Positions 4,413-29,207 of a stretch of DNA of 64,000 nucleotides are shown one piece after another. Position 1 is the stretch's first letter; each line of letters opens with the position of its first letter. The notes beneath the pieces are model-generated. The model was given only the letters and a program-made list of their open reading frames with translations. It did not search any database and was not told the origin of the DNA. The stretch lies in assembly GCA_042408205.1 (NCBI GenBank), contig JBHOQK010000025.1:1597-65596 (forward strand), given 5' to 3'. Source of the DNA: Dehalococcoidia bacterium. GTDB taxonomy: Bacteria; Chloroflexota; Dehalococcoidia; GIF9; DYGU01. The position numbers were made by a program, and so were the translations under genes.

Positions 4413-6068
4413 TTAGACTAAAGCTGGCAAACGATATTCACCAAAGACCCGGCGTAAAACACCACAGATTTCACCAAGAGTAGCATAAGCTTTCACTGCT
4501 TCCAAGATAAAGGGCATGAGGTTATCTGTTCTCTGAGCGGCTTGACGCAAAGCTTCCAGCTTTACTGAAACTAATTCATTGTCTCTTTCTCGGCGTATCC
4601 GGTTAAGGCGCTCTAAGTGTCTTCTTTCCCCCTCTTTGTCTATTTTTAGGAGGGGGATAGTGATAGGTTCGTTTGTTATATATTCATTAACGCCGACTAT
4701 AATTCGCTTCTTAGTATCTATTTCTCTCTGGTAGCGATAAGCTGATTCGGCAATTTCTCTGTGGAAGAAGCCTGACTCTATCCCGGCGATAACACCGCCG
4801 ATAGACTCAATTTTAGCGAAATAGTCATAGACAGCTTTTTCCATCTGATTGGTAAGGGCTTCTACGAAATAACTACCACCGAGGGGGTCAATAGTATTAA
4901 CTACACCACTTTCGTGGGCGATGATTTGCTGGGTGCGTAAGGCAATTCTCACGGCAAATTCTGAGGGTAAAGCTAAGGCTTCATCCATAGAATTAGTATG
5001 GAGGGATTGGGTGCCACCGAGAACGGCAGCTAAAGCCTGGATAGTAGTTCTAATGATATTGTTTTCCGGTTGCTGGGCGGTGAGGGAACAGCCGGCGGTT
5101 TGGGTATGGAAGCGGAGCCATTGGGAGCGCTCATTGGCGCCGAAGCGGTGTTTCATTTCCCTTGCCCAGATACGCCGAGCGGCTCGAAATTTGGCAATCT
5201 CTTCAAAGAAATCATTATGGCAATTGAAAAAGAAGCTGAGTCTGGGGGCAAAGTCATCTACTTTAAGCCCTCGGTCAATACCGGCTTGAACATAGGTTAA
5301 GCCATTAGCTAAAGTAAAAGCCAGTTCCTGTACAGCAGTTGCCCCTGCTTCCCGGATGTGGTAGCCACTAATACTGATAGTATTCCAGCGGGGGACATAT
5401 TTCATGCCGAACTCAAAAGTATCCACAATGAGGCGCAAAGACGGTTTTGGGGGGAAAATATAAGCATTTTGTGCCATATATTCCTTAAGGATATCATTCT
5501 GGATAGTCCCCCCCAGTTTATCCAGGGGTATGCCTCGTTTTTCGGCATTAGCCAAATACATAGCCCAGATAACGGCGGCGGGTCCATTGATAGTCATGGA
5601 GGTAGTTATTTGATCTAAGGGAATGCCATCAAAGAGGATTTCCATATCTGCCAAAGAAGACACTGCCACACCACATTTGCCAAATTCCCCCCGAGCCTCG
5701 GGGGCATCGGTGTCATAGCCATTAAGGGTAGGAAAATCAAAGGCGACGCTAAGACCAGTTTCCCCATGTTCCAGAAGGTATTTATATCGGGCATTACTTT
5801 CTTCGGCGCTGCCAAAGCCGGCAAACATGCGCATGGTCCAGAGTCGTCCGCGATAACCTGTATAATGGATGCCCCGAGTAAAGGGGTATTCCCCAGGGAA
5901 GCCTAAATCCCGGAAATAATCCATATCAGCAATATCGGCGGGTGTGTAGAGGCGTTCAATAGGAGTGCCCGAAGTGGTCACAAAAGTCTCTTGTCTTTCG
6001 GGGAAGCATTGGGACCGGGCATACCATTCTGCCACTTTTCTCTCTATTTCATCCTTTACCTCAAACAT
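4413..6068 (-). CDS. methylmalonyl-CoA mutase, catalytic (TIM-barrel) subunit; no B12-binding domain in this ORF
   Basis: 551 aa with [19 protein letters not shown] and [10 protein letters not shown] blocks typical of the MCM large-subunit N-terminal domain. The ORF ends before a cobalamin-binding domain would begin. Confidence 0.9.
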
Positions 6069-6712: not shown

Positions 6713-7723
6713 TTAATAGCGTCTTCGGAGAGCTAAAGCCAGCAGGGAAAGCAAAATGAAACCATTAATTACAGCTATACCTATAATAAGCCATGAAGGT
6801 TTTGGTGGCGGGGCTGGGGCAACCACGGTAAATTTGTCTTTAAGGTCACCAATTTCTACCTGGTACTCACCAATAATAGTTTTGGTGATAGGGAAGTCTA
6901 CTTTTTGGCTACTTCCGGGGGTGAGGGTCAATTCTTTTGTCGCTTCGACTCTGTGGTTTATCTTTAACTCCAAGTTATAACTACCTGTGGAACCACCAAT
7001 ATTGCTGACTATTACTGAGATAATAATGGTGGTGCCCACTGGGGCTTGTTTTGGTTTAATATTAAGACTGCTTATCGTGAAAGTGGCTGGAGTTGGTGGT
7101 GCCAGCTTAGCTAAGAGGGCAAACATAGCCGTATGGGTTATCTTTGCCGTGACTGTTCCTAACTCAGGGGTGCCAGCGGTTTCTGATTCTAACTCTATCC
7201 AGCCCTTGTTGGGATGATAATAAGCTATAACTAAAGAGGTAGTTTCTTTGGGCAGTTTAGGTGGTTCAAAGGTAAGGGTAAGTTTAGCTGGTGGGACGAA
7301 ACTTATTCCGTGGGGAGTGAAATCCCAAATATTACCAACTATCTTGGTATTGGGTGGTGGGGGTGGTGAGTCTTTTCTGTCTATAAATATCTGGGTAGCT
7401 GGTGTTCCGTCTGGATTATTAACCAGGGTGAACCTTTCTATTTCAAATCTTATCTGGTCTCTGGATATCAGAACCAGATTAGTCAGCCTTAAGTCGGTTA
7501 AGTGAGGAGAGGTGAGGATAGGGGAACCCTCAAAGTAGATATTTAGCTTTGGCGGTTCTGGAGCATAACCTCCTCCCCCTCCTCCACCTGGTAAGGGGAT
7601 TCCGGGCGTGGCAGTAATAGTAATGTCAGCCGTATTGCTACCACTACCTTGACCGATAGCAAAATAAACAGGTAAGCTGATAAAAGTGGCGGCGAGGATA
7701 AAAGCGCAGATTACTTTTCGCAT
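6713..7723 (-). CDS. secreted, C-terminally membrane-anchored protein with CARDB-like beta-sandwich domain
   Basis: N-terminal signal peptide and a GGGGGG tract. A CARDB-like segment follows (VGTTIIISVIVSNIGGSTGSYNLELKIN...GEYQVEIGD). The C-terminus is a PSW + hydrophobic helix + RRRY anchor. Confidence 0.55.
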   Translation of the reverse strand: MRKVICAFILAATFISLPVYFAIGQGSGSNTADITITATPGIPLPGGGGGGGYAPEPPKLNIYFEGSPILTSPHLTDLRLTNLVLISRDQIRFEIERFTLVNNPDGTPATQIFIDRKDSPPPPPNTKIVGNIWDFTPHGISFVPPAKLTLTFEPPKLPKETTSLVIAYYHPNKGWIELESETAGTPELGTVTAKITHTAMFALLAKLAPPTPATFTISSLNIKPKQAPVGTTIIISVIVSNIGGSTGSYNLELKINHRVEATKELTLTPGSSQKVDFPITKTIIGEYQVEIGDLKDKFTVVAPAPPPKPSWLIIGIAVINGFILLSLLALALRRRY

Positions 7724-13058: not shown

Positions 13059-13775
13059 ATGGAAATAATTCCAGCTATTGACCTTAAAGGGGGGAAGTGT
13101 GTTCGTTTGTATCAAGGGGACTTAAAACAAGAAATGGTGTTTTCTGAGGAACCGGTGGCGGTAGCTTTGGACTGGGAAGCTCAGGGGGCGTCACGCCTTC
13201 ATATTGTTGACCTGGATGGAGCTGTTACTGGAGAAATAGTTAATAAAGAGACGATAAAAGCAATTTTAGATAAAGTTAGTATACCGGTTCAGGTGGGGGG
13301 TGGGATTCGTCGGCTACAGGTAGTGACGGAGTTGCTCACCCTGGGTGCCAAGCGGGTAATATTAGGTACTATGGCTGTAGAAAATATAAGATTAGTGGAA
13401 GAACTGTGTCAGCGATTTGGGGAAGCCATTATTGTAAGTCTTGATGCCCGGGATGGTTATATAGCTACTCATGGCTGGCAAAGAACCAATCCGGTTACGG
13501 CTTTAGAGTTAGGGTTAAAATTAGTAAAAGCTGGGGTAAAGCGACTTATTTATACGGACATAAAGCGGGATGGCACTTTAACGGAACCTAATTTTGACGC
13601 TATAGCTGAGTTAGTGACAAAGTTAGCTGTGCCCATTATTGCCTCTGGGGGGGTTTCATCCTTATTTCATCTGAAACGGCTCAAAGATTTGGGGGTTGAA
13701 GGAGTTATTATCGGCAGGGCTCTTTATAGTGGTAATATAAAACTGACAGAAGCTATAACCCAAGCGAGGGTATAG
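13059..13775 (+). CDS. hisA: 1-(5-phosphoribosyl)-5-[(5-phosphoribosylamino)methylideneamino]imidazole-4-carboxamide isomerase
   Basis: IIPAIDLKGGKCVRLYQGD N-terminus, 238 aa, immediately upstream of hisF. Confidence 0.9.
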   Translation: MEIIPAIDLKGGKCVRLYQGDLKQEMVFSEEPVAVALDWEAQGASRLHIVDLDGAVTGEIVNKETIKAILDKVSIPVQVGGGIRRLQVVTELLTLGAKRVILGTMAVENIRLVEELCQRFGEAIIVSLDARDGYIATHGWQRTNPVTALELGLKLVKAGVKRLIYTDIKRDGTLTEPNFDAIAELVTKLAVPIIASGGVSSLFHLKRLKDLGVEGVIIGRALYSGNIKLTEAITQARV

Positions 13776-17603: not shown

Positions 17604-18206
17604 TTAGGGACTATGGATTATCTTTTCCCATAGTTGCGTTACCTTAGTTTCTAACTGAGACAAGCTACAGTTAGTGTCAATTACCACCTGAGCTCGTTTA
17701 ATTTTTTCTTCCTGGGGTAGCTGGGAGTTGAGGCGGGCTAAGATTTGAGTTTCATCCCACCCCTTTTCCTTTTTGAGGCGTTCTATAATAACTTCCTTAG
17801 GGGCAGTGGCTAACCAAATTTGGTCAACGAGATTTGTCCAGCCAGCTTCAATAAGTAACGGAGCTTCTAGGACAATGACTTTAGCTCCCTTTTTTTGTTC
17901 CGTCTCAATTCTCTCTTTAGTTCTGTGATACATTTCAGGATGCATTATCTGGTTAAGGATAGCTAAGGCTTGGGGGTTATTAAAAACTATTTCTCCTAAT
18001 TTACGGCGGTCTATCTCATTATTAGCTTTGAGGATATCTTTGCCGAAGGTAGAAACTATTTTGTGCCAAGTTTGAGTTTTGGGTTGGAGGAGTTCATGTC
18101 CAATTTGATCGGCGTTAATTATAGTAGCTCCCAACTTGGCTAAGATGTTAGAAATAGTGGTTTTTCCGGTGCCGATGTTTCCCGTTAAGCCGATGACTAT
18201 TTTCAA
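17604..18206 (-). CDS. coaE: dephospho-CoA kinase
   Basis: IGLTGNIGTGKTT P-loop at the N-terminus, 200 aa. Confidence 0.9.
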   Translation of the reverse strand: MKIVIGLTGNIGTGKTTISNILAKLGATIINADQIGHELLQPKTQTWHKIVSTFGKDILKANNEIDRRKLGEIVFNNPQALAILNQIMHPEMYHRTKERIETEQKKGAKVIVLEAPLLIEAGWTNLVDQIWLATAPKEVIIERLKKEKGWDETQILARLNSQLPQEEKIKRAQVVIDTNCSLSQLETKVTQLWEKIIHSP

Positions 18207-18215
18207 CTTGGCTTT

Positions 18216-19382
18216 TTAGACGAAGGCGGGCAGGCCTAATATTTCGCGGCCAACGATGAGTTTTTGGATTTCGGTGGTGCCGTCGGCAAAGGTGAGCATT
18301 CGGGCATCCCGGAAATAACGCTCTAAAGGATATTCTTCAGAGACGCCATAAGCACCATGAATTTGAATGGCTTGGGAAGTTACCCTTATTGCCATTTCCG
18401 TGGCGAAGGCTTTTGCCATAGAGGCTTCTTTAAAGCAATTTTCCCCTTTCCCGAGGCGGTAATAAGCTTGATAGCAGAGGAAGCGAGCGGCTTCGGTGGT
18501 AATAGCCATATCGGCAATCATCTCTTGAATGAGCTGGAAAGTGCCAATGAGTCGTCCGAACTGCTTTCGCTCTTGGGCATATTTAATGGAGGCATCTAGG
18601 GCAGCTTGGGCAAGTCCAGTAGCCATCATTCCCATGCCAATGCGAATCTCAAGGAAATCCAAGAGAGCTAAGCGATAACCTCCCCCGAGACCGCCAAGGA
18701 TATTTTCTTTAGGAACCCGGCAGTTTTCAAAAATAAGTTCCGAGGTAGGGCAAGAGCGAAGCCCCAGGTGAGGCAGGTTTCGGCTGGTAAAAGGAGATTC
18801 AGCTCGGTCAACAATAAAGCAAGTAATGCCTTGAGCTCCCTTACTTCGGTCAGTGACGGCGAAAACAACAGCTATATCAGCAATATCCCCATTACTTATC
18901 CAAGTCTTAGTGCCATTTAGAATATAATAGTCGCCCTCAGGGACAGCCGTAGTTTTAATATCTCTGGCTCCGGAGCCGACATCAGGTTCAGTGGAAGCCA
19001 GACAGCAGATTTTCTCTAAGGCTAACACTTTGGGAATAAACTTTTGCTTTTGTTCAGGGGTACCATCTTTAAGTAAGCTAGGTAGTAAGGCTTCATTTTG
19101 GAGAATGACTATAAGACATAAGCTGGCATAAGCTCGGGAAAGCTCTTCAATGAGGATACCGTAAGAAACAAAGTCTAAGCCATGCCCCCCATATTCTTGA
19201 GGCAATAGGGCACCAATATAACCGAGGGGAGTTATTTTTTTCATAAGGTTTATAGCTATATCTCTGGGTAAAGGTTGATATTTTCGGTCATATTCATCAG
19301 CAATAGGAATTATTTCCTTCTCCATAAATTCCCGGGCACTTTTTTTAAGCATTTTCTGTTCTTCGCTAAACTCCAGTATCAT
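18216..19382 (-). CDS. acyl-CoA dehydrogenase
   Basis: 388 aa with ACAD blocks (STEPDVGSG, YFRDARMLTFADGTTEIQ). Confidence 0.9.
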   Translation of the reverse strand: MILEFSEEQKMLKKSAREFMEKEIIPIADEYDRKYQPLPRDIAINLMKKITPLGYIGALLPQEYGGHGLDFVSYGILIEELSRAYASLCLIVILQNEALLPSLLKDGTPEQKQKFIPKVLALEKICCLASTEPDVGSGARDIKTTAVPEGDYYILNGTKTWISNGDIADIAVVFAVTDRSKGAQGITCFIVDRAESPFTSRNLPHLGLRSCPTSELIFENCRVPKENILGGLGGGYRLALLDFLEIRIGMGMMATGLAQAALDASIKYAQERKQFGRLIGTFQLIQEMIADMAITTEAARFLCYQAYYRLGKGENCFKEASMAKAFATEMAIRVTSQAIQIHGAYGVSEEYPLERYFRDARMLTFADGTTEIQKLIVGREILGLPAFV

Positions 19383-19534
19383 GGCAACCTTCCTTTTAGT
19401 TTATGATTGGTTTTTTTCCGAAAGGGCTTTTAGGCTGGTTATCTCGCCTTAGCGATTATTATACTGCTTTGTATTTAAGAAGGGAATAGGTTTGTTCTTC
19501 AGGGAATGATATAATAAATTTGGAAGGGCTGAGG

Positions 19535-20578
19535 ATGATAAAGGCTTTACTTTACGAAAAACTTAATGGCAACCGAGTTCGGTGTAATGTATGCCAGTGG
19601 CGTTGTGTTATCCTTCCGGACAAAGTTGGCGTTTGCCGGGTGCGCCGCAATTATGATGGTGAACTCTACCTTCTCAATTATGCGGAAGTATCTTCTATAG
19701 GTGTTGACCCGATTGAAAAGAAACCTCTCTTTCATTTTTTCCCGGGGAGTTTTGTTTTTTCTTTAGGGGGCTGGGGGTGTAATTTTCATTGTCAGCATTG
19801 TCAGAACTGGGAAATTTCTTGTGTTGAAGAGCCGGGAAAGGGTGGCAGAATTTCTCGGAAAATTTCTCCTGAAGAAGCCATAGAGTTAACCATCCACTAT
19901 CGTTGTGGAGGTATTTGTTGGACTTATAATGAGCCGGCAATTTGGTTTGAGTATACTTTGGAAGGAGCCAAGTTAGCCCGACAGAAAGGTTTATATACAG
20001 CTTATGTCACTAATGGTTACCTTACCCCTGAGGCTTTAGATGTTATTGGACCTTATCTGGAAGCCTGGCGGGTTGATGTGAAAGGTTTTTCTGACAATTT
20101 TTATCAGAAACTGAGTAAAATTTATCGGTGGCGTGGTATTTTAGAGGTGGCGAAGCGGGCTCGGGAGAAGTGGGGAATGCATGTAGAAGTGGTGACCAAT
20201 ATTATACCGACTATGAACGATGATGAAGAACAATTACAAGGTATTGCCCGGTGGATTTGTGATGAATTAGGGGAATTAACCCCCTGGCATGTAACCCGGT
20301 TTTATCCTCACTATCATTTGACCCATCTGCCGCCAACTCCTATATCAACCCTGGAAAAAGCTTATTATATCGGTAAAAAAGCTGGATTAAAATTTGTTTA
20401 TCTTGGGAATGTGCCGGGACACGATAAGGAGAATACTGTTTGTTATTCTTGTGGTAAATTAAACATAAGTCGTTTTGGTTATAATACCCGGGTAGTTGGT
20501 GTTGATGGTTCAAAATGTAAGTTTTGCGGAGCCGAACTTAATATTAGGCAAACTATGAGAGGACGAGAGAGATGGTAA
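19535..20578 (+). CDS. AmmeMemoRadiSam system radical SAM enzyme
   Basis: CNFHCQHCQNW radical-SAM motif. Its N-terminal Cys cluster and length resemble PFL-activase-like enzymes. It is followed by MEMO-like and AMMECR1-like genes. I prefer the ATG at 19535 to the TTG at 19520. Confidence 0.8.
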   Translation: MIKALLYEKLNGNRVRCNVCQWRCVILPDKVGVCRVRRNYDGELYLLNYAEVSSIGVDPIEKKPLFHFFPGSFVFSLGGWGCNFHCQHCQNWEISCVEEPGKGGRISRKISPEEAIELTIHYRCGGICWTYNEPAIWFEYTLEGAKLARQKGLYTAYVTNGYLTPEALDVIGPYLEAWRVDVKGFSDNFYQKLSKIYRWRGILEVAKRAREKWGMHVEVVTNIIPTMNDDEEQLQGIARWICDELGELTPWHVTRFYPHYHLTHLPPTPISTLEKAYYIGKKAGLKFVYLGNVPGHDKENTVCYSCGKLNISRFGYNTRVVGVDGSKCKFCGAELNIRQTMRGRERW

Positions 20579-21387
20579 AAGTTAGGAATCCAGCAGTATC
20601 AGGGCAATTTTATCCGGCATCCCCTTCTTTACTTCGGGCTCAGATTGAAGGTTTTATTGACCCAAAAGCAGTTAAGGAAGAGGTAATAGGCCTAGTCTCA
20701 CCTCATGCTGGATATATTTATTCTGGAGGGGTGGCTGGTGCCGTTATCTCCAAGGTTAGATTCAAAGATACCTTTATTATTTTAGGACCAAATCATACTG
20801 GGTATGGAAGTCCTTTTAGTATTATGGCTGAAGGGGTCTGGAAAACTCCCCTCGGGGAGGTTGAGATTGACTCAAGATTGAGTAAAAAAATATTAGAAAT
20901 CTCCAAATATTTAAAGGAGGATCATCTGGCTCATTTGAGGGAGCATTCTATTGAGGTTCAATTACCCTTTCTCCAGTATTTCAAAGAAGATGTTAAGATA
21001 GTCCCCATTGTTCTTGCCCCTGCCCCGGGTAGCACTTATAAAGAGATTGGACGGGAAATAGCTAAGGCAATCAAGAATTTAAATAAAGAAGTAATCATCA
21101 TTGCCAGTACTGATATGACCCATTATGAACCTCATCAGGTAGCGCAAAGGAAAGATAAACAGGCTATAGAGGCAATACTGAATTTAAATGAAGATGAGCT
21201 TCTTAAGCGAGTAGATGAGTTAGACATATCCATGTGTGGCTATGGACCGACGGTTAGTCTTATCTCCGCCAGTAAAGAATTAGGCGCCAAGGTAGCTGAA
21301 CTGATTAAATATCAAACAAGTGGAGATACCTCTGGTAATTACGCCAGTGTTGTTGGCTATGCTGGAATAATAATTAAGAAGGGGTAA
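20572..21387 (+). CDS. AmmeMemoRadiSam system protein B (MEMO1 family)
   Basis: [10 protein letters not shown]...[10 protein letters not shown]...GPNHTG blocks typical of the MEMO family. The start overlaps the upstream stop. Confidence 0.85.
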
Positions 21388-21392
21388 CTAAA

Positions 21393-21896
21393 ATGCATCC
21401 CTTGGTTAAATTAGCTAAGGAAACCGTTGAAAACTATATCCGCAAGGGCAAGGTGGTAAAACCGGAAGAGCTCACTCCGGAGATGAAGGAAAGAGCTGGT
21501 GTTTTTGTCTGTATTAAAAAACATGGTGAATTACGGGGATGTATTGGGACTTTCGAACCTACCCAAGCTAATGTAGCCGAGGAAATTATAGCTAATGCTA
21601 TCAGTTCTGCTACTCGGGATCCTCGGTTCTCACCAATAACTGAGGCAGAGCTACCAGATTTAGAATACATTGTAGATATTCTTACCCGTCCTGAACCGGT
21701 GACGGATATAAGACAGCTTGATCCGAAGAAATATGGGATAATTGTTGAGAGTGGCTTCAGGCGTGGACTCCTTCTTCCTGACCTGGAAGGAGTTAATACG
21801 GTTGAGGAGCAAATAGCTATCTGTCGGGCTAAAGCCGGCATACTTCCTGAAGAACCAATAAAACTTTATCGTTTTCAGGTGAGGCGATATAAGTGA
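21393..21896 (+). CDS. AmmeMemoRadiSam system protein A (AMMECR1 domain)
   Basis: [18 protein letters not shown] and RDPRFSP motifs typical of AMMECR1. Confidence 0.85.
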
Positions 21897-22957
21897 AGTT
21901 ATTGGTTATTGGTTTAGGCAAGGGTGGCTCTCGAATTGCTGATGAATTTGCTCAGTTAAATAAAAAAGCTAAAGCAGAGCGGAATGTGACTATATTAACG
22001 GCAGCATATGCCGCTTGCTCTGATGGGGAGACCTTAGAGAAGCTAATTTCTAAAGAGACAGATCTTCTGGTTCGGTTATTAGTGCCGGAACCTTCATCGA
22101 CAAAACCTAATGAGACAGTCCAAGCCATTAGTGAACGAATTTTATCAGCTATACGGCGGAGTGAATATTTTGATACTGAAGCTTTCCTGGTTATTGCTGG
22201 TGCTGGTGGCAATTTTGGTTCTAAGATGGCGCCTCTAATCGGACAAAAATTAAAGGAGCGCTTTGTTGGTAAGCCTATTTATAGCCTTCTGGTTCTTCCC
22301 TTCGAATCAGAAGAATTAACTGAGACCGAAGCAATTTATCGGGCAGCGGTTTGTCTTAAATCTCTTTACCGGGTGACTGAGGCTGTTTTTTTGGTGGACA
22401 ATGAAAAGTTGCGGCGAGGCAAGGTATCGTGGGGGCAGCCACAAATTAATCAGGAGATAGTAACCTTCTTTTATGACCTTTTATGTGCCAGTGAGGTTTC
22501 TGGGTCTAAATACGCTGGGGTAAGAAACTTAAGTGTTGGCGATATAATCCAGACCCTTTATGGTTTTACTGCTATAGGCACTGGGAAAGTTGAACTTACT
22601 TCACGGTTTTCCTTCTGGAGGTTACCTACGTTTCGAGAGAAGGGAGAGGAGCAATTGAAGGCTCTGGAGGCAATTAATTTAGCCTTAAACAATTTGTCGA
22701 TTGATTGTGGACTAAAAGATTCGGGCAAAGCTTTATATCTTGTTTCAGCCCCGGCTAAAGAAATGAGCGTCGATATGGCTAAGGCTTTAGCTGGTCGTTT
22801 ACGAGAACTGACCGAGGTTGCTGAAATTAGGGGTGGTGATTTTGCTGGTAGCACCAATTCAGTTCAAGTTACCGTGGTTTTGTCCCAACTTGCCTTTGTA
22901 GAAAAAGTAAAAAATTATTATGACAAAGCTGTTGCCTTTTTGAAATTGAAGAGATAA
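21893..22957 (+). CDS. tubulin/FtsZ-superfamily paralog with degenerate nucleotide-binding loops
   Basis: GTG start inside GTGA, overlapping the AMMECR1 stop, with SD ggtgagg. The N-terminus [19 protein letters not shown] is clearly paralogous to 26195..27373. The T4 signature reads GAGGNFGS, the NTD motif reads CSDGE, and the Gly-rich T3 region is absent. Confidence 0.6.
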
Positions 22958-22962
22958 TAAAT

Positions 22963-24273
22963 ATGACTTTTTTAGATAAAGATGTGCCTTTAGCATTTAG
23001 GCTGCGCCCGCGGAATTTTGACGAATTTGTGGGACAAGAACATTTAATTGGGGAAGGGAGGGTGCTTCGGAAATGTATTGAGATGGATCAGTTACCGTCT
23101 TTAATCCTGTGGGGTCCTCCTGGGAGTGGCAAAACAAGTTTAGCTTATGTTATTGCTAACATGACCAAGTCTCATTTTAGTCCTGTAAGTGCCGTTAATG
23201 CTGGTGTGGCTGATTTGCGCCAGATTATCAAGGAAGCTAAACAGCGCCGGAACTGGGGGCAAAGAACTATCCTTTTTATTGATGAAATTCACCGCTTCAA
23301 TAAAGCCCAGCAGGATGCCATTTTACCCTTCGTAGAAAAGGGAACGATAACCCTTATCGGAGCTACTACTGAAAATCCATCTTTTGAAGTAATTTCTCCT
23401 CTTTTATCTCGGTGTCGAGTATTTACTTTAAAACCTTTATCGGATAAAGAGATTGAACTTATTATCAAGAGGGCTTTAGAGGATGAAGAACGGGGGTTGG
23501 CTAAATTAAAGGTGAAGTTAAAGGATGAAGCCTTAGAATATCTTATTCTTATGTCCAATGGGGATGCTCGAATAGCTCTCAATGCTTTAGAAATGGCAGC
23601 TTGGGCAACACCTCCTGATGAGACTGGGCAGCGGTGTCTGACTTTGCCAATTATTGAAGAAGCTCTTCAAAGTCGGACTTTTCTTTACGATAAGGCTGGT
23701 GACCAGCATTATGACCTTATTTCAGCTTTACATAAATCCTTAAGGGGTTCGGCTCCTGATGCCGCTTTATATTGGTTAGGGCGGATGCTGGAGGCTGGGG
23801 AAGACCCTTTGTATATAGCTCGGCGCTTAATTCGCTTTGCCTGTGAAGATATCGGAATGGCTGACCCCCAAGCCTTAGTCATCGCTGTCGCTGCTCAGCA
23901 AGCTGTCCATTTTGTGGGCATGCCTGAAGGTAATCTGGCTTTAGCTGAAGCCGTGGTCTACTTAGCTACAGCTCCGAAAAGTAACTCTATATATGAGGCT
24001 TATAGTCAAGTGCAGCAAGATATAGAAAAAGGTCGAAACGATCCCGTACCCCTTCATTTGCGCAATCCAGTTACTCCACTAATGCGTGGCTTTGGATATG
24101 GAAAAGACTATAAATACCCCCATGACTACCCAGGACATTTTGTTGCTCAAGAGTATTTGCCCAAGAGTTTAGCCGGAAAGCGCTATTACCTGCCTAGTGA
24201 CCAAGGTTATGAAAAAGAAATTCAAGTTCGACTCCAAAATTGGTGGGGAAATAAGAAAACTAAACCAGACTAA
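22963..24273 (+). CDS. rarA: replication-associated recombination protein A (AAA+ ATPase)
   Basis: GPPGSGKTS Walker A, LFIDEIHRFNK Walker B/sensor, and C-terminal MgsA-type blocks (HYDLISALHKSLRGS, YPHDYP). Confidence 0.9.
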   Translation: MTFLDKDVPLAFRLRPRNFDEFVGQEHLIGEGRVLRKCIEMDQLPSLILWGPPGSGKTSLAYVIANMTKSHFSPVSAVNAGVADLRQIIKEAKQRRNWGQRTILFIDEIHRFNKAQQDAILPFVEKGTITLIGATTENPSFEVISPLLSRCRVFTLKPLSDKEIELIIKRALEDEERGLAKLKVKLKDEALEYLILMSNGDARIALNALEMAAWATPPDETGQRCLTLPIIEEALQSRTFLYDKAGDQHYDLISALHKSLRGSAPDAALYWLGRMLEAGEDPLYIARRLIRFACEDIGMADPQALVIAVAAQQAVHFVGMPEGNLALAEAVVYLATAPKSNSIYEAYSQVQQDIEKGRNDPVPLHLRNPVTPLMRGFGYGKDYKYPHDYPGHFVAQEYLPKSLAGKRYYLPSDQGYEKEIQVRLQNWWGNKKTKPD

Positions 24274-24389: not shown

Positions 24390-24578
24390 ATGAAGCTTTT
24401 AAAGTTAGCCTTAGAAACCCAGCGCTATGACCTGGCAGCCCATGCCTTAGTCTTTGGCTTAATCAAAGCCAAGATTGACAATGGCAGACAGGGAAATGGT
24501 AAAGACCAGAGAAAGTCAAGACAAGCCAAAAAGACCATCATTCTACGAACAAGCCTTAAAGGAAGCCGAAAAGCTTGA
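24390..24578 (+). CDS. possible leaderless small ORF (62 aa), uncertain
   Basis: The ATG lies 6 nt downstream of the predicted -10. The first ~30 aa look helical and the remainder is a basic tail. It overlaps the next ORF in the +1 frame. Confidence 0.25.
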   Translation: MKLLKLALETQRYDLAAHALVFGLIKAKIDNGRQGNGKDQRKSRQAKKTIILRTSLKGSRKA

Positions 24579-24831
24579 ACTCCAAGAAGCTTTAGGCATT
24601 GATGGGATTGACCAGGAAATAGCGCTACTAAGGATAAAACTCAGGGAGCTTATTGTGTCTCAGCCCGATAGAATAGATTTACACCTTGAAGCTGCTTCTA
24701 CTATCGCCCGGTTAGTTAGAACCAGATACTTGATCACCAAGGAGCAAAAGAAGTCCCTAAAGGAAGCTATCACTAAAGTCATCACCGAAATTGCTGTTCC
24801 TTTAGGCGTTAAAGTGTTAATGAGGGAGTAA
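24481..24831 (+). CDS. hypothetical protein immediately upstream of the large terminase (small-terminase candidate)
   Basis: The position is the only evidence. Its stop is 1 nt from the terminase ATG, the protein is helical and charged, and I recognise no motif. Confidence 0.4.
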   Translation: MADREMVKTRESQDKPKRPSFYEQALKEAEKLELQEALGIDGIDQEIALLRIKLRELIVSQPDRIDLHLEAASTIARLVRTRYLITKEQKKSLKEAITKVITEIAVPLGVKVLMRE

Positions 24832-24832
24832 C

Positions 24833-26212
24833 ATGAAGTTAAGACCATATCAATTAGAAGTGGCTAAAGCCGTAGTCGAAAGTGTCATCGAAAAGAAAGG
24901 CTTAACCTTCTCCGTAGAAATAGCCCGGCAGGGAGGGAAAAATGAACTCTCTGCCCATTTGGAGGTACTTCTTTTGACTCTGTTTATGGCTAAAGGTGGT
25001 AATGCCGTTAAATGTTCTCCTACCTTTAAGCCCCAGACTATTATCTCAATGATGCGACTTAAGGAAAGACTTGATGAGTTCGGCTTTACTGGTATTTATC
25101 GTCCTGAAATGGGCTATATCCTTCGCTTGGGGAATGCTTGCCAAATCTTTTTATCTGCCGATGAGCAAGCCTCCGTAGTCGGTCATACTGCCGATATCCT
25201 CTTAGAAATTGATGAAAGTCAAGATGTCAGTAAAGACAAATATACTAAGGATTTCCGACCCATGGCTTCAGCCTACAACACTACTACCGTCCATTACGGC
25301 ACGACCTGGGATGATACCACTCTCTTGGAAGAGATAAAGCAAATGAACTTAGAGCTGGAAAAGAAAGACGGCATCAAAAGACATTTTCGCTATGACTGGC
25401 AGGAAGTAGGTAAATATAACCCCGATTATTTAGCCTTTGTAGAAAGTGAACGGGAAAGGTTAGGCGAAAATCATCCCCTGTTTTTAACCCAATATGCTCT
25501 TAAACCCATAAGAGGCGGTGGTGGCTTTCTAACCAATCTTCAGATTGCCCAGATGTTAGGCAATCATCCCAGACAAAAATACCGAGAAGAAGGTAAAACT
25601 TATATTGCCGGCATTGACTTAGCTGGGCAGGAAGAACAATTAGATGAGTTAATTCTCACCAGACCCTCCCGGGATGCCACTGTTATCACCATTGCTGAAT
25701 TAGACCTTCGCCACCAATCCGAAGCTAACTTAGTTCAGCCAAGTCTAAAAATAGTCGAACACTATGCCTGGATTGGCAAAAAACACACCGAAGCCATAAA
25801 CACCATTATTGACTTAATGAGAAATACTTGGAATATCAGTAAAGTAGTAGTCGATGCCACGGGAATTGGTGAGCCCATCGCAGCCATCCTAAAACAAGCC
25901 CTGGGAAGTAAGGTCGTTCCCTTCGTCTTTACCCAGAAATCTAAATCAGAACTGGGCTTTGAACTTTTAGCCTTTATCAACTCAGGCAGGCTAAAAATCT
26001 ACCGGCAAGATGGCTCAGAAGATTATAAAGAACTAATGTATCAGCTTGAGAAAGCTAAGTCCGTTTACCGCCCTAACCAGACCCTAAACTTCTTTGTCGA
26101 CCCGCAAGACGGGCACGACGATTATCTAATGAGCTTAGCCCTCTTAGTTTTTGGGGCTAAAGAATGGCAACCCCGAGTAGCTCGGGGTTTGACTTCAAAT
26201 AAGGGTTGGTAA
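24833..26212 (+). CDS. phage terminase large subunit-like protein
   Basis: 459 aa. Walker A-like ARQGGKNE and Walker B-like ILLEIDESQ in the N-terminal half. RNase-H-like nuclease pattern in the C-terminal half (IAGIDLAG ... VVVDATGIG ... GHDDYLMSLAL). SD gagggag. Confidence 0.7.
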   Translation: MKLRPYQLEVAKAVVESVIEKKGLTFSVEIARQGGKNELSAHLEVLLLTLFMAKGGNAVKCSPTFKPQTIISMMRLKERLDEFGFTGIYRPEMGYILRLGNACQIFLSADEQASVVGHTADILLEIDESQDVSKDKYTKDFRPMASAYNTTTVHYGTTWDDTTLLEEIKQMNLELEKKDGIKRHFRYDWQEVGKYNPDYLAFVESERERLGENHPLFLTQYALKPIRGGGGFLTNLQIAQMLGNHPRQKYREEGKTYIAGIDLAGQEEQLDELILTRPSRDATVITIAELDLRHQSEANLVQPSLKIVEHYAWIGKKHTEAINTIIDLMRNTWNISKVVVDATGIGEPIAAILKQALGSKVVPFVFTQKSKSELGFELLAFINSGRLKIYRQDGSEDYKELMYQLEKAKSVYRPNQTLNFFVDPQDGHDDYLMSLALLVFGAKEWQPRVARGLTSNKGW

Positions 26213-27373
26213 TTCTTTAGCTGCTTCTTCCATATCCCGGAGGCGGCTGGTAGTTTCTTTTATCCTTTCTTTCTGACTGCGGGCAAAGGCAGAAGCCCGG
26301 TCGTAATAATCTCTTATTTTTTGGACAAAAGCCAGCTGGGAAAACATTACGGTAACATCAATAGCTCCTTTTTCCCAAGGGAAGTCACCGCTTCTAATAA
26401 CAGCATTTTCAGCTAATTCTCTAAGATAATCCCCCAAGCCTTTAGCCATATCCATATTCATGTGTCGAGCTGGAGCGGCTAACAGAAAGAGAGCTCGCCC
26501 CGCATCCGCTGGATTACAGGCTAAAGAAAGCTCACTTAAGGCAGCATCCATAGCTTGCATAGCCCGAAGAGTCTCTCGACTCTTTTCTCGGAAAGTGGCG
26601 GTGGGTCTTTCCCAAGGGAAGCGCCAGCGGGGGATTTCCGTTCTGCCCACGCCAATCACAGTCCAGCCATCAATAGACTGGATAATATCGCCGGCATCGA
26701 GGGTCTTTGCCCCCACATATTTGTATTTAGTTACTTCACCAGCACACATTATGTCATAAAAGGGTTCAACAATTTGCCTATTTATTCGCTGTAAGTTTGT
26801 GGCTAAAGAGGCATCTTTTCTTACATAGCGTTGATTATCAACTAAGAAAACACCATCGGCAACAGTGTGGATAGACTTAAGACAGGTAGCTGTATTATAG
26901 ACACTTCTTAATTCAGCCATTTCCTCGTGTTCAAAGGGGAGGACTATCAGGGCATAAACAGGCTTGCCAATATAACGCTCTTTAATCATTTGGGTAATAA
27001 CGGAGATGGCTCCAGAGCCAGTACCACCAGCCGCGCCGGCAATGAGGAGAAAAGCATGAGTTTCATAAAAGCGGGGAGCTGTCCGGATGGCATCAATAAC
27101 TTTGTCCCCATCTTCTTTAGCCAGCTCGGCTCCCATTTCATTTACTTTACCGACGCCGTGCCCCCAAGTCTTACGCCCGCCAATAAGAATGCGGTGGAGA
27201 TAATCAGAGCCAATATAAGTTAATCCTGTTAGGTCAGCTTGGTCAGTGTTTACGGCAAAAGCTCCGGTAACGATAGTTGTCTTTCGCTCACTCTGGGCTC
27301 TGGCATTAAGCCGGACAAATTCATCAGCAATCCGTGAACCACATTGTCCTAAACCAATAACCATTAATTTCAT
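26195..27373 (-). CDS. tubulin/FtsZ-superfamily GTPase (intact motifs)
   Basis: [19 protein letters not shown] (T1, GQCG as in tubulin/CetZ), AVNTDQADL (as FtsZ NTDAQAL), GHGVGKVNEMG (T3-like), IAGAAGGTGSG (T4 tubulin signature), TLDAGD (T7-like NxDxxD). SD agagagg. Confidence 0.7.
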   Translation of the reverse strand: MKLMVIGLGQCGSRIADEFVRLNARAQSERKTTIVTGAFAVNTDQADLTGLTYIGSDYLHRILIGGRKTWGHGVGKVNEMGAELAKEDGDKVIDAIRTAPRFYETHAFLLIAGAAGGTGSGAISVITQMIKERYIGKPVYALIVLPFEHEEMAELRSVYNTATCLKSIHTVADGVFLVDNQRYVRKDASLATNLQRINRQIVEPFYDIMCAGEVTKYKYVGAKTLDAGDIIQSIDGWTVIGVGRTEIPRWRFPWERPTATFREKSRETLRAMQAMDAALSELSLACNPADAGRALFLLAAPARHMNMDMAKGLGDYLRELAENAVIRSGDFPWEKGAIDVTVMFSQLAFVQKIRDYYDRASAFARSQKERIKETTSRLRDMEEAAKELPTLI

Positions 27374-27437: not shown

Positions 27438-29207
27438 CTATTCCTCCAATTTCATTTGTTTTAATACTTGGCGCAGGCGGAAAATTATAGCCCCTATTAG
27501 CAAAATAAATCCTATAACCGAGACGATAAATAGCCAGGTCTGTATCAAACCAACTCGGAAGGATTGGGGAGTTGTCCACGGGCTTTCATTTTGAGCCCCA
27601 TCTACAGCTTTTACTCTCCAATAATAAATACCGTAGCTTAAAGCTTCTTTACTGGTTAATTTATAAGTAGTTTCATTTAGGTTAACTTTGCGCAAACTAA
27701 GATTGGTAAAGTCTTCGGTCTTAGCTATTTCCAGATTATAACTGACGCCACTGGGGTCAGTAACGGGAGACCAGCTAAATTGGGGGGTAGCTTTACCTAA
27801 GAGATTGACCCGGGCTCCCGGGGATGGCAATAGGAGATTTGGGGTTGGTGGTGGGGTTGTTTCCATAGTTACTGAAGAAATAACAGAATTACCAGCAGCA
27901 TCTTTAACTTCTATTTTATGTCCTCCACCTTTGCTTTTGGGAGCTTTGAAGGTAATAGTGAAACTACCAGTAGTATCTGTTATTGCTGTAGCTACTTCCA
28001 GAGTGTCATAAATAATGGTTATAGGTGAATTCTTAGCAAAGCCACTGCCGACAATAGTAATCGTTGTGCCTACAGCTATGTTAGTTGGGTTAACTTTTAT
28101 GGCGGAAGTTACAGTAAAGATTAGGTCGGGGATTTCGGTATCTGGGGTAATAGTCCCGGAGGCATCAATAATATGACTACCTTTGGCTCCGGGTGGCACT
28201 TCCAAAGTAGTTATCCACGAACCCGTAGCATCGGCGGTAATATCGCTTTTAACCACATTTCCATCATAAAGGAGGCGGATATTCTTTTCATTTCCAGCAA
28301 AGCCGCTACCAGTAATGGTTATGGTACTCCATACTGGTGCTGAAGTTGGCTCAACCTTTATCCTGGGGGCAATAGTAAAAATAACATCAGGAACTTCGGT
28401 AGCTAAGGTAGTGCCCATAGCATCAATGATATGATCGCCTCGGATAGCCGTCGGCACTGAAAAGGTAGCTGTCCAGCTTCCTTTGTCATCGGCGGCAATA
28501 CCTGTTTTAACGGCAGTGCCAGCAAAGGTAACCCGGATATTCGTTTCATTGGCGTTAAAGCCGGTGCCAGTAACGGTGACTAAAGTACCGACCCCGCCTG
28601 AGGTAGGGGATAGGCTGATTTTTGGGGTGACGGTGAAGGTTCCAGCTGGCACCTCGGTTTCTAAAGTGATCGCGCTAAAGCCAACAACCTGATGGGCTCC
28701 CTTAGCACTTATCGGCACGGTAAAAGTCGTTGTCCAGGAGCCACTGCTATCGGCGGTGATGCCTGTTTTTTGCTCTATACCATCATAAGTTATTTTGATA
28801 TTAGGTTCGGTAGCTGTAAAGCCCCTGCCAGTGACTGTGACAGTAGTCCCCACTGGTCCACTGCTTGGGGTTAGGCTAATACTTGGGGTGACTCGGAAAG
28901 TTTTACTGTCAGTGTTTGGAGGGGAGGCATCATCAGTAACAGTAATAGTATGGTTACCCTTAACGCTGGGGGGGATAGTGAAAGCGGCAGTAATTGTTCC
29001 CCCTTGAACTAATCCCCGAGCCATTTCCACCCCATCATAAGTGACTCTGAAGTTAATACCGCTAAAACCACTCCCAGTGACGGCGACAGCAGTACCTACT
29101 GGACCTGAATCGGGAGTGAGGCTGATGCTGGCAGCAGCATTAACACCTCTCGGTATTAAAGTTATCCCGAGGAAAACTATCAAAAAAGCCCAAATTTTTA
29201 TTTTCAT
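27438..29207 (-). CDS. secreted IPT/TIG-like repeat protein with C-terminal Fn3-like YYWRV module and TM anchor
   Basis: Signal peptide. At least six ~85-aa repeats of the form ISLTP.SGPVGT.VTVTG.GF...I.VTYDG. The C-terminal module is FSWSPVTDPSGVSYNLEIA...YYWRVKAVDGAQNESPW followed by a hydrophobic helix. Confidence 0.7.
   Translation of the reverse strand: MKIKIWAFLIVFLGITLIPRGVNAAASISLTPDSGPVGTAVAVTGSGFSGINFRVTYDGVEMARGLVQGGTITAAFTIPPSVKGNHTITVTDDASPPNTDSKTFRVTPSISLTPSSGPVGTTVTVTGRGFTATEPNIKITYDGIEQKTGITADSSGSWTTTFTVPISAKGAHQVVGFSAITLETEVPAGTFTVTPKISLSPTSGGVGTLVTVTGTGFNANETNIRVTFAGTAVKTGIAADDKGSWTATFSVPTAIRGDHIIDAMGTTLATEVPDVIFTIAPRIKVEPTSAPVWSTITITGSGFAGNEKNIRLLYDGNVVKSDITADATGSWITTLEVPPGAKGSHIIDASGTITPDTEIPDLIFTVTSAIKVNPTNIAVGTTITIVGSGFAKNSPITIIYDTLEVATAITDTTGSFTITFKAPKSKGGGHKIEVKDAAGNSVISSVTMETTPPPTPNLLLPSPGARVNLLGKATPQFSWSPVTDPSGVSYNLEIAKTEDFTNLSLRKVNLNETTYKLTSKEALSYGIYYWRVKAVDGAQNESPWTTPQSFRVGLIQTWLFIVSVIGFILLIGAIIFRLRQVLKQMKLEE

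Follow-up and report, generated by a model that had tools for sequence, protein, structure and literature searches.

The biochemical function of the AmmeMemoRadiSam system, a prokaryotic protein trio with relatives in human disease, is a long-standing puzzle, and any conserved neighbour of its genes could point to the substrate. Such a neighbour is found in a 64,000-nucleotide stretch of DNA (contig JBHOQK010000025.1 of assembly GCA_042408205.1, hereafter the window) from an uncultured Dehalococcoidia bacterium of a hot-spring metagenome, in which a tubulin-like gene, here called cetZ-A (21893..22957, + strand), directly follows the three genes of the system. The question raised by this locus is whether the product of cetZ-A is a substrate or partner of the trio, as the first-pass annotation had proposed, or a passenger in its operon. 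Comparison of related loci suggests that cetZ-A is a passenger, specific to one clade, that occupies a variable slot of the operon. In the explanation that we favour with moderate confidence, cetZ-A is a duplicate of a nearby intact paralog, cetZ-B, that settled in a permissive slot of the operon, and its product acts together with CetZ-B, probably without binding GTP itself, rather than as a substrate of the trio.

The protein encoded by cetZ-A belongs to the tubulin/FtsZ superfamily, and its nearest solved relatives are the archaeal CetZ proteins. It scores 63.7 bits against the Pfam family Tubulin (PF00091, cut-off 33) and 46.7 bits against CetZ_C (PF21011, cut-off 21.6), and its best sequence matches in the PDB are Haloferax CetZ1 and CetZ2 (4b46 and 4b45). 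The AlphaFold2 model of the protein (predicted local distance difference test, pLDDT, 79; predicted template modelling score, pTM, 0.83) has the same two structures at the top of its Foldseek matches (E = 3e-23 to CetZ1), which also include hundreds of FtsZ and tubulin chains; the identity to the CetZ structures is only 22–25%. The GTG start of the gene fits the N-termini of 25 homologs, which begin MKLLVIG. CetZ-A has in common with the archaeal proteins, including Methanosaeta CetZ (3zid), the pair of Tubulin and CetZ_C matches and an acidic residue in the T7 loop, of the kind that activates hydrolysis in the adjoining subunit: in a residue-by-residue comparison with 4b46, D217 of CetZ-A aligns with E218 of CetZ1, a protein with a role in cell shape. 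Unlike them, the protein comes from a bacterial host, and neither the GGGTGSG signature nor the T3 loop is present in it.

The motifs that form the nucleotide pocket of CetZ-A are degenerate according to alignments and a motif table. The T4 signature (residues 103–110; 22199..22222, + strand) reads GAGGNFGS, in place of the GAAGGTGS of CetZ-B; its GGNFGS stands where intact proteins have GGTGSG, and the superfamily consensus GGGTG[ST]G is missing. The region of the T3 loop (residues ~62–78; 22076..22126, + strand), which in intact proteins contacts the gamma-phosphate, is a variable, shortened stretch from which the GHGVGK block of type B and archaeal CetZ is gone, and the C-terminal tail is absent. 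By contrast, the T7-loop pair G216-D217 (22538..22543, + strand) is invariant in both paralogs and their orthologs. Judged by these motifs, the nucleotide pocket of CetZ-A is probably non-functional. The description of the gene as a degenerate member of the tubulin/FtsZ superfamily, given in the first-pass annotation, is thus upheld by the profile matches, the predicted fold, and the lost T3 and T4 motifs.

The intact paralog, CetZ-B, is encoded at 26195..27373 on the − strand and is 46% identical to CetZ-A over the full length. It scores 106.8 bits against Pfam Tubulin, matches CetZ_C, and finds 4b46 in the PDB with E = 6e-43; it has the complete GGTGSG and GHGVG motifs and a C-terminal tail, KELPTLI. 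When 26 relatives are aligned and the motifs of ~110 genes tabulated, the T4 signature, the T3 loop, and the tail co-vary and divide the genes cleanly into two types. Every type B gene contains GGTGS, all have GHGVG, and the consensus of their tail is K-[EGD]-[LI]-P-S-L-[IL]. Every type A gene with a readable motif has G-x-[FLV]-G-S, with N, S, T, A, or G as x, the GHGVG block is missing or replaced in all of them, and type A is without the tail. The two types share 33 invariant columns, including the T7 G-D pair. They also share the superfamily fold with canonical FtsZ; however, type A has no match to the FtsZ profile TIGR00065, and type B reaches 58.6 bits, below the cut-off of 295.2. The TubZ-family structure 4ei7 is among the sequence matches of type B and the fold matches of type A.

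The loss of the GTP-binding motifs and the tail, together with nonsynonymous change that is two to seven times faster in type A than in type B, could mark cetZ-A as a decaying, functionless duplicate that hitch-hikes in the operon. However, none of the 26 lineages has a broken reading frame, the 33 columns invariant across both types are kept, and the fold is predicted with confidence. The ratio of nonsynonymous to synonymous substitution rates (dN/dS), calculated for genes of the two types picked by position, is 0.06–0.25 for type A and 0.008–0.05 for type B. CetZ-A is under purifying selection, which leads us to reject decay as a highly improbable explanation.

CetZ-like proteins have been noticed in this lineage before. 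Santana-Molina et al. 2023 (PMC9871819) place CetZ-like sequences in Chloroflexota-Dehalococcoidia, among sparse paraphyletic groups, and the CetZ C-terminal model matches bacterial Chloroflexota sequences in the same work; these proteins are of the same lineage and family as the pair in the window. The searched text contains no mention of Memo, AMMECR1, or radical SAM proteins, and intact and degenerate paralogs are not separated in it. Dehalococcoides mccartyi has a canonical ftsZ-ftsA pair (DET0343/DET0342) and, apart from it, further genes that are annotated 'FtsZ' (PMC5102406); its proteomes include a product that carries the annotation tubulin/GTPase (PMC5102406, PMC8163811). The extra 'FtsZ' genes probably represent the CetZ-like family, which would then be present in this group in addition to FtsZ.

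The genes upstream of cetZ-A form a complete AmmeMemoRadiSam trio, clustered in the order radical SAM enzyme (rSAM), MEMO, AMMECR1. The rSAM gene (19535..20578, + strand; Pfam Radical_SAM) encodes a protein with the CxxxCxxC cluster motif, CNFHCQHC, which scores 286.1 bits against NCBIfam TIGR04337 (cut-off 220) and resembles, more weakly, the activases of glycyl-radical enzymes (PflA and NrdG among them). The MEMO-like protein, or AmmeMemoRadiSam protein B (20572..21387, + strand), reaches 325.2 bits against TIGR04336 (cut-off 26) and 269.4 bits against Pfam Memo (E = 3.9e-80). The AMMECR1-like protein, or AmmeMemoRadiSam protein A (21393..21896, + strand), reaches 143.9 bits against TIGR04335 (cut-off 99) and 173 bits against Pfam AMMECR1. 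The three proteins correspond to the defined system in that all exceed the curated cut-offs and their genes are adjacent on the same strand. The locus differs from the system in that, within the clade of the window, the trio is extended by rarA and a CetZ-like gene, and in that the MEMO slot of relatives may contain a LigB-type protein, a fusion with AMMECR1, or nothing.

The packing of these genes is tight. The rSAM and MEMO genes overlap by 7 nucleotides (ATGGTAA), 5 nucleotides separate MEMO from AMMECR1, and the GTG start of cetZ-A (21893–21895) overlaps the TGA stop of AMMECR1 (21894–21896) within GTGA. A Shine-Dalgarno-like GGTGAGG (21878..21884, + strand) lies within the AMMECR1 gene, 8 nucleotides ahead of the GTG. 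The junctions of the trio, the start codon, and the ribosome-binding site are therefore as the first-pass annotation had read them; it had counted a cluster of four genes, however, and, although the packing of those four holds, their number does not, because rarA/mgsA (22963..24273, + strand; Pfam MgsA_C, AAA_assoc_2, and AAA), which encodes an AAA+ replication-associated recombination protein, begins 5 nucleotides after cetZ-A. The tight cluster thus comprises five genes (19535–24273, + strand), of which rarA is the fifth. A consensus scan found fewer terminator-like sites than in shuffled sequence and none at any gene junction. Because of the gene overlaps and the lack of terminator-like sites at the junctions, cetZ-A is likely to be co-transcribed with the trio and rarA in the window. 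Among sequencing runs, the sequence occurs in a single DNA run, that of the hot-spring metagenome, and in no RNA run.

The arrangement is not unique to this genome, which was one way in which the proposed partnership might have failed; the other, a fourth gene from outside the tubulin/FtsZ superfamily, does not apply either. A comparison set of ~180 related loci was assembled, and a scan of GTDB species genomes gave 555 relatives, of which the best 75 loci were examined; these 75 all belong to Dehalococcoidia/Chloroflexota, as does every relative that has a name. The order rSAM-MEMO-AMMECR1-cetZ-A, usually followed by rarA, recurs at orthologs with identities of 66%, 64%, 53%, 51%, and 49%, and the adjacency persists in cetZ-A orthologs down to ~41–49% identity. 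The gene directly follows AMMECR1 in 22 of the 23 distinct type A genes with flanking sequence, and in 25 of 26 when later samples are included. The exception, L069, has cetZ-A beside rarA and the cetZ-B block, with no trio within 21 kb. The spacing of the two genes is not constant: among 24 distinct loci the AMMECR1-to-cetZ-A spacer measures at most 7 nucleotides in 10, 19–184 nucleotides in 11, and ~613 nucleotides in three (L013, L033, L050), and the overlap of stop and start codons is confined to the near relatives of the window.

This adjacency is a reason to consider that CetZ-A, or CetZ-B through CetZ-A, serves the AmmeMemoRadiSam enzymes of the clade as a substrate, scaffold, or physical partner; for example, the activase-like rSAM, MEMO, and AMMECR1 could jointly modify the tubulin-like protein. 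The start-stop overlap in the window and its closest relatives, the resemblance of rSAM to activases that act on proteins, and the survival of the adjacency after loss of rarA and exchange of the protein in the MEMO slot agree with such a role. However, the spacer varies from 0 to ~615 nucleotides, L069 keeps cetZ-A away from the trio, and the conservation in 25 of 26 genes may stem from one event. In neighbour-joining trees of concatenated rSAM and AMMECR1, all loci with cetZ-A fall into one group, and everything that lacks type A lies outside it, including clade II (100% bootstrap), a clade of MEMO-AMMECR1 fusions (100%), a locus with toxin-antitoxin genes, and a relocated rSAM-AMMECR1 pair (L084). 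The adjacency is consistent with one origin in a single Dehalococcoidia clade. Nothing points to more than one gain, and the 25 of 26 cases thus effectively amount to one evolutionary observation.

Relatives outside this clade show what occupies the place of cetZ-A elsewhere. AMMECR1 proteins are 72–86% identical over hundreds of protein clusters, more than 120 of which lie at 75–86%, and 80 metagenome loci were picked solely by AMMECR1 similarity. Only two of the 80 have cetZ-A, 67 are demonstrably without it, and 11 are too short to judge. In 44 of the 80 loci rarA directly follows AMMECR1, with a gap within ~60 nucleotides in 39, and the other 23 of the 67 have at least 1.3 kb of downstream sequence without cetZ-A. 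Clade II (L092–L171, such as L118 and L155, and L087) contains only rSAM and AMMECR1, with no MEMO at the locus, and has a near-constant AMMECR1-rarA spacing of ~19 nucleotides where the boundaries of open reading frames were called. Clade II loci of sufficient length continue from rSAM-AMMECR1-rarA, over ~2 kb, to a small gene, a terminase-like gene, and cetZ-B. Because this order occurs without type A, the trio operon neighboured a tubulin-like gene before type A arose. In L087, a gene for a Y1 (IS200-like) transposase lies between rSAM and AMMECR1, at the MEMO position (5350–5748).

Sampling from the side of MEMO leads to the same slot. Most close MEMO homologs are MEMO-AMMECR1 fusions of 435–437 amino acids (L172–L176, L180; P0246–P0360), encoded directly after the radical SAM gene, with L21, L27, and coaE upstream and rarA downstream as in the backbone. 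Between the fusion gene and rarA there may be a YaaC-like gene, or genes for a PAS-HD protein, a glyoxalase, and a Na/H exchanger, or genes for NMO and a nitroreductase. A lineage with a full trio of separate genes, whose MEMO is 76% identical to that of the window, has ParE-type and VapBC toxin-antitoxin pairs in the slot; the ParE-type and VapB/PIN modules lie between AMMECR1 and rarA at 7608–8929 of L177, and likewise in L178 and L179. Their presence identifies this position as a hot spot for insertions. The AMMECR1-side sample had given the impression that MEMO is present exactly where CetZ-A is; this correlation collapsed upon the search for MEMO homologs, which showed many Dehalococcoidia with fusions or the full trio at the locus and without CetZ-A.

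cetZ-A thus sits in a slot for variable cargo on a conserved backbone, CoaE / rSAM-(MEMO)-AMMECR1 ... RarA, because sister lineages have unrelated genes or nothing there. In Dehalococcoidia, the rSAM-AMMECR1-rarA linkage goes back further than the link to tubulin and is found more widely. The proposal that the tubulin-like protein is a substrate or partner of the trio thus gained no further support: the gene occurs in a single clade, in a variable slot, behind a variable spacer, and in L069 without the trio. Sister lineages that maintain the trio or the MEMO-AMMECR1 fusion at this locus have unrelated cargo there and no tubulin-like gene, and AmmeMemoRadiSam, as defined by TIGRFAMs, is widespread in prokaryotes that do not have CetZ. 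If the tubulin neighbour is a clade-specific passenger, as these comparisons suggest, it therefore does not provide guilt-by-association evidence for a cytoskeletal role of AmmeMemoRadiSam. The connection of MEMO1 to microtubules is a resemblance that carries no weight in the argument. Burroughs et al., writing in J Biol Chem in 2019, reportedly compared AmmeMemoRadiSam contexts and pointed to the modification of nucleotide bases or isoprenoids, not to the cytoskeleton. Among the papers searched, none links AmmeMemoRadiSam to a tubulin homolog.

The MEMO slot of clade I contains either a Memo-type or a LigB/extradiol-dioxygenase-type protein, which are 24% identical to each other (20572–21387 of the window compared with 6665–7486 of L001, and with L005, L007, L011, L014, L046, L050, and L080). 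The type is swapped between sisters in the pairs window/L001 and L033/L050 and, with weaker support, in L003/L046. In an all-pairs regression with permuted MEMO-type labels, the divergence of rSAM co-varies with MEMO type (p = 0.003), and that of CetZ-A does not do so significantly (p = 0.12, or 0.31 when RarA is included in the backbone). The three swapped sister pairs on their own exhibit an excess of change in CetZ-A, which would fit a partner of the trio. Altogether, the data neither favour nor dismiss a substrate or partner role. We regard a partnership of any of these kinds as unlikely, while according it real weight, and the narrower proposal, in which CetZ-A was recruited as a client or scaffold and the activase-like rSAM modifies it, or CetZ-B through it, as doubtful; a client relationship is a minority prospect in either form. 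If true, it would give AmmeMemoRadiSam its first protein substrate and provide a prokaryotic counterpart to the reported connection of MEMO1 with the cytoskeleton.

The gene on the other side of cetZ-A deserves the same scrutiny. CetZ-A could be tied to RarA as an accessory of replication, recombination, or segregation, with cetZ-A-rarA as a real sub-operon. The cetZ-A/rarA junction is tight in most loci (−4 to +12 nucleotides), the spacer between AMMECR1 and cetZ-A is loose and leaves room for a promoter, and in L069 cetZ-A stays with rarA, apart from the trio; tubulin relatives such as TubZ act in DNA segregation, and the TubZ-family structure 4ei7 is among the sequence matches of type B and the fold matches of type A. 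However, rarA is present at the locus in clades II and III without cetZ-A, it has been lost downstream of cetZ-A in L001/L009 and L014, and a gap of 434 nucleotides separates the two genes in L069. We know of no precedent for a partnership of RarA with a tubulin, and consider this explanation quite improbable.

The favoured explanation, a cetZ-B duplicate that works with CetZ-B, starts from the position of the two genes. cetZ-B lies 3–15 kb from cetZ-A in every clade I locus of sufficient length, and at the same relative position in those relatives without type A whose loci extend to it. Local duplication of cetZ-B is the simplest account of the origin of cetZ-A and the most likely route, because of this short distance and because the clade II operon already adjoins the cetZ-B block. 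A second copy of the nearby cetZ-B would have been inserted between AMMECR1 and rarA in the common ancestor of the clade. This type A copy would then have shed its T3 loop, its GGTGSG signature, and its C-terminal tail, and kept the tubulin/FtsZ fold and the acidic T7 residue under the purifying selection that has acted on it since. The T7 face of CetZ-A may dock at the GTP pocket of a CetZ-B subunit; in this way CetZ-A could cap, terminate, or regulate a CetZ-B polymer. The capping mechanism is proposed by analogy to asymmetric pairs of the tubulin family, such as alpha/beta-tubulin and BtubA/BtubB, in which the paralogs are unequal at the nucleotide site and one provides the catalytic T7 residue. 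The analogy is limited in that alpha-tubulin still binds GTP, whereas CetZ-A has degenerate motifs in the pocket itself. That the region was recently acquired by horizontal transfer, or derives from a prophage, was considered as well and rejected: there is no anomaly of G+C content over the region, and the terminase-like gene nearby is a conserved chromosomal gene.

Several observations weigh against this explanation. The adjacency of cetZ-A to AMMECR1 is very stable inside the clade; it persists where rarA has been lost (L001/L009 and L014), where the upstream flank differs, and where the MEMO slot has repeatedly changed its occupant. Such stability is also expected from selection for co-expression. 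The three MEMO-swapped sister pairs show an approximately twofold excess of CetZ-A divergence, and the base of the cetZ-A group has a bootstrap value of 45% in a distance tree of ~500 columns, which is weak support. The hetero-assembly of CetZ-A with CetZ-B and the loss of GTP binding are predictions from motifs.

The cetZ-B block contains further genes that may be relevant to its function. A small protein of 118 amino acids (24475..24831, + strand), 44–76% identical across ~60 loci, is always encoded upstream of the terminase-like gene and has no family match in Pfam, NCBIfam, or PHROGs. The terminase-large-subunit-like protein of 459 amino acids (24833..26212, + strand; Pfam Terminase_6C and PHROGs TerL families) is encoded convergently with cetZ-B, the ends of the two genes overlap, and their pairing is conserved across Dehalococcoidia. 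The pair of genes for the 118-residue and terminase-like proteins is present in ~60 related loci, for instance at 13206–14902 of L003 and 9948–11737 of L087; dN/dS is ~0.1–0.15 in the tested pairs, and other phage genes are absent nearby. The terminase-like gene could be a domesticated gene of the DNA-translocase kind that is linked to a tubulin homolog. Directly downstream of cetZ-B there is a conserved gene for a membrane protein of 589 amino acids (27438..29207, − strand), the translation of which displays a signal peptide, approximately seven immunoglobulin-like (TIG/Big) repeats with an NCBIfam Ig-like match, and a membrane anchor at the C-terminus followed by a short cytoplasmic tail. 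The protein may be exposed at the cell surface and coupled to the tail motif KELPTLI of CetZ-B. Two intact type B genes, ~3–4 kb apart, occur in L055, L062, L065, L068, L070, L072, L074–L076, and L078, which are loci of genomes labelled Dehalococcoidaceae or Dehalococcoidales; these lack a type A copy, and AmmeMemoRadiSam genes are absent within 10 kb.

On the upstream side, genes for the ribosomal proteins bL21, bL27, and bL31 lie close to the cluster, and coaE and an acyl-CoA dehydrogenase gene (17604..19382, − strand) constitute the conserved upstream flank of the backbone, divergent from the operon. The intergenic region between the acyl-CoA dehydrogenase and rSAM genes (19383..19534) is, from a reading of its sequence, the likely promoter region of the operon; a consensus scan of it found no convincing sigma-70 site. 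GGAAGGG lies 6 nucleotides ahead of the rSAM ATG at 19535, and a TTG at 19520 is an alternative start.

New in this locus is a CetZ-like subfamily with degenerate GTP-binding motifs inside an AmmeMemoRadiSam-rarA operon. The linkage of rSAM, AMMECR1, and rarA in Dehalococcoidia is of interest in itself, as is the MEMO slot, in which Memo-type and LigB-type proteins have repeatedly replaced each other in place. The CetZ-like pair, with one intact and one motif-degenerate member, may offer a simple model for asymmetric partnerships in the tubulin family.

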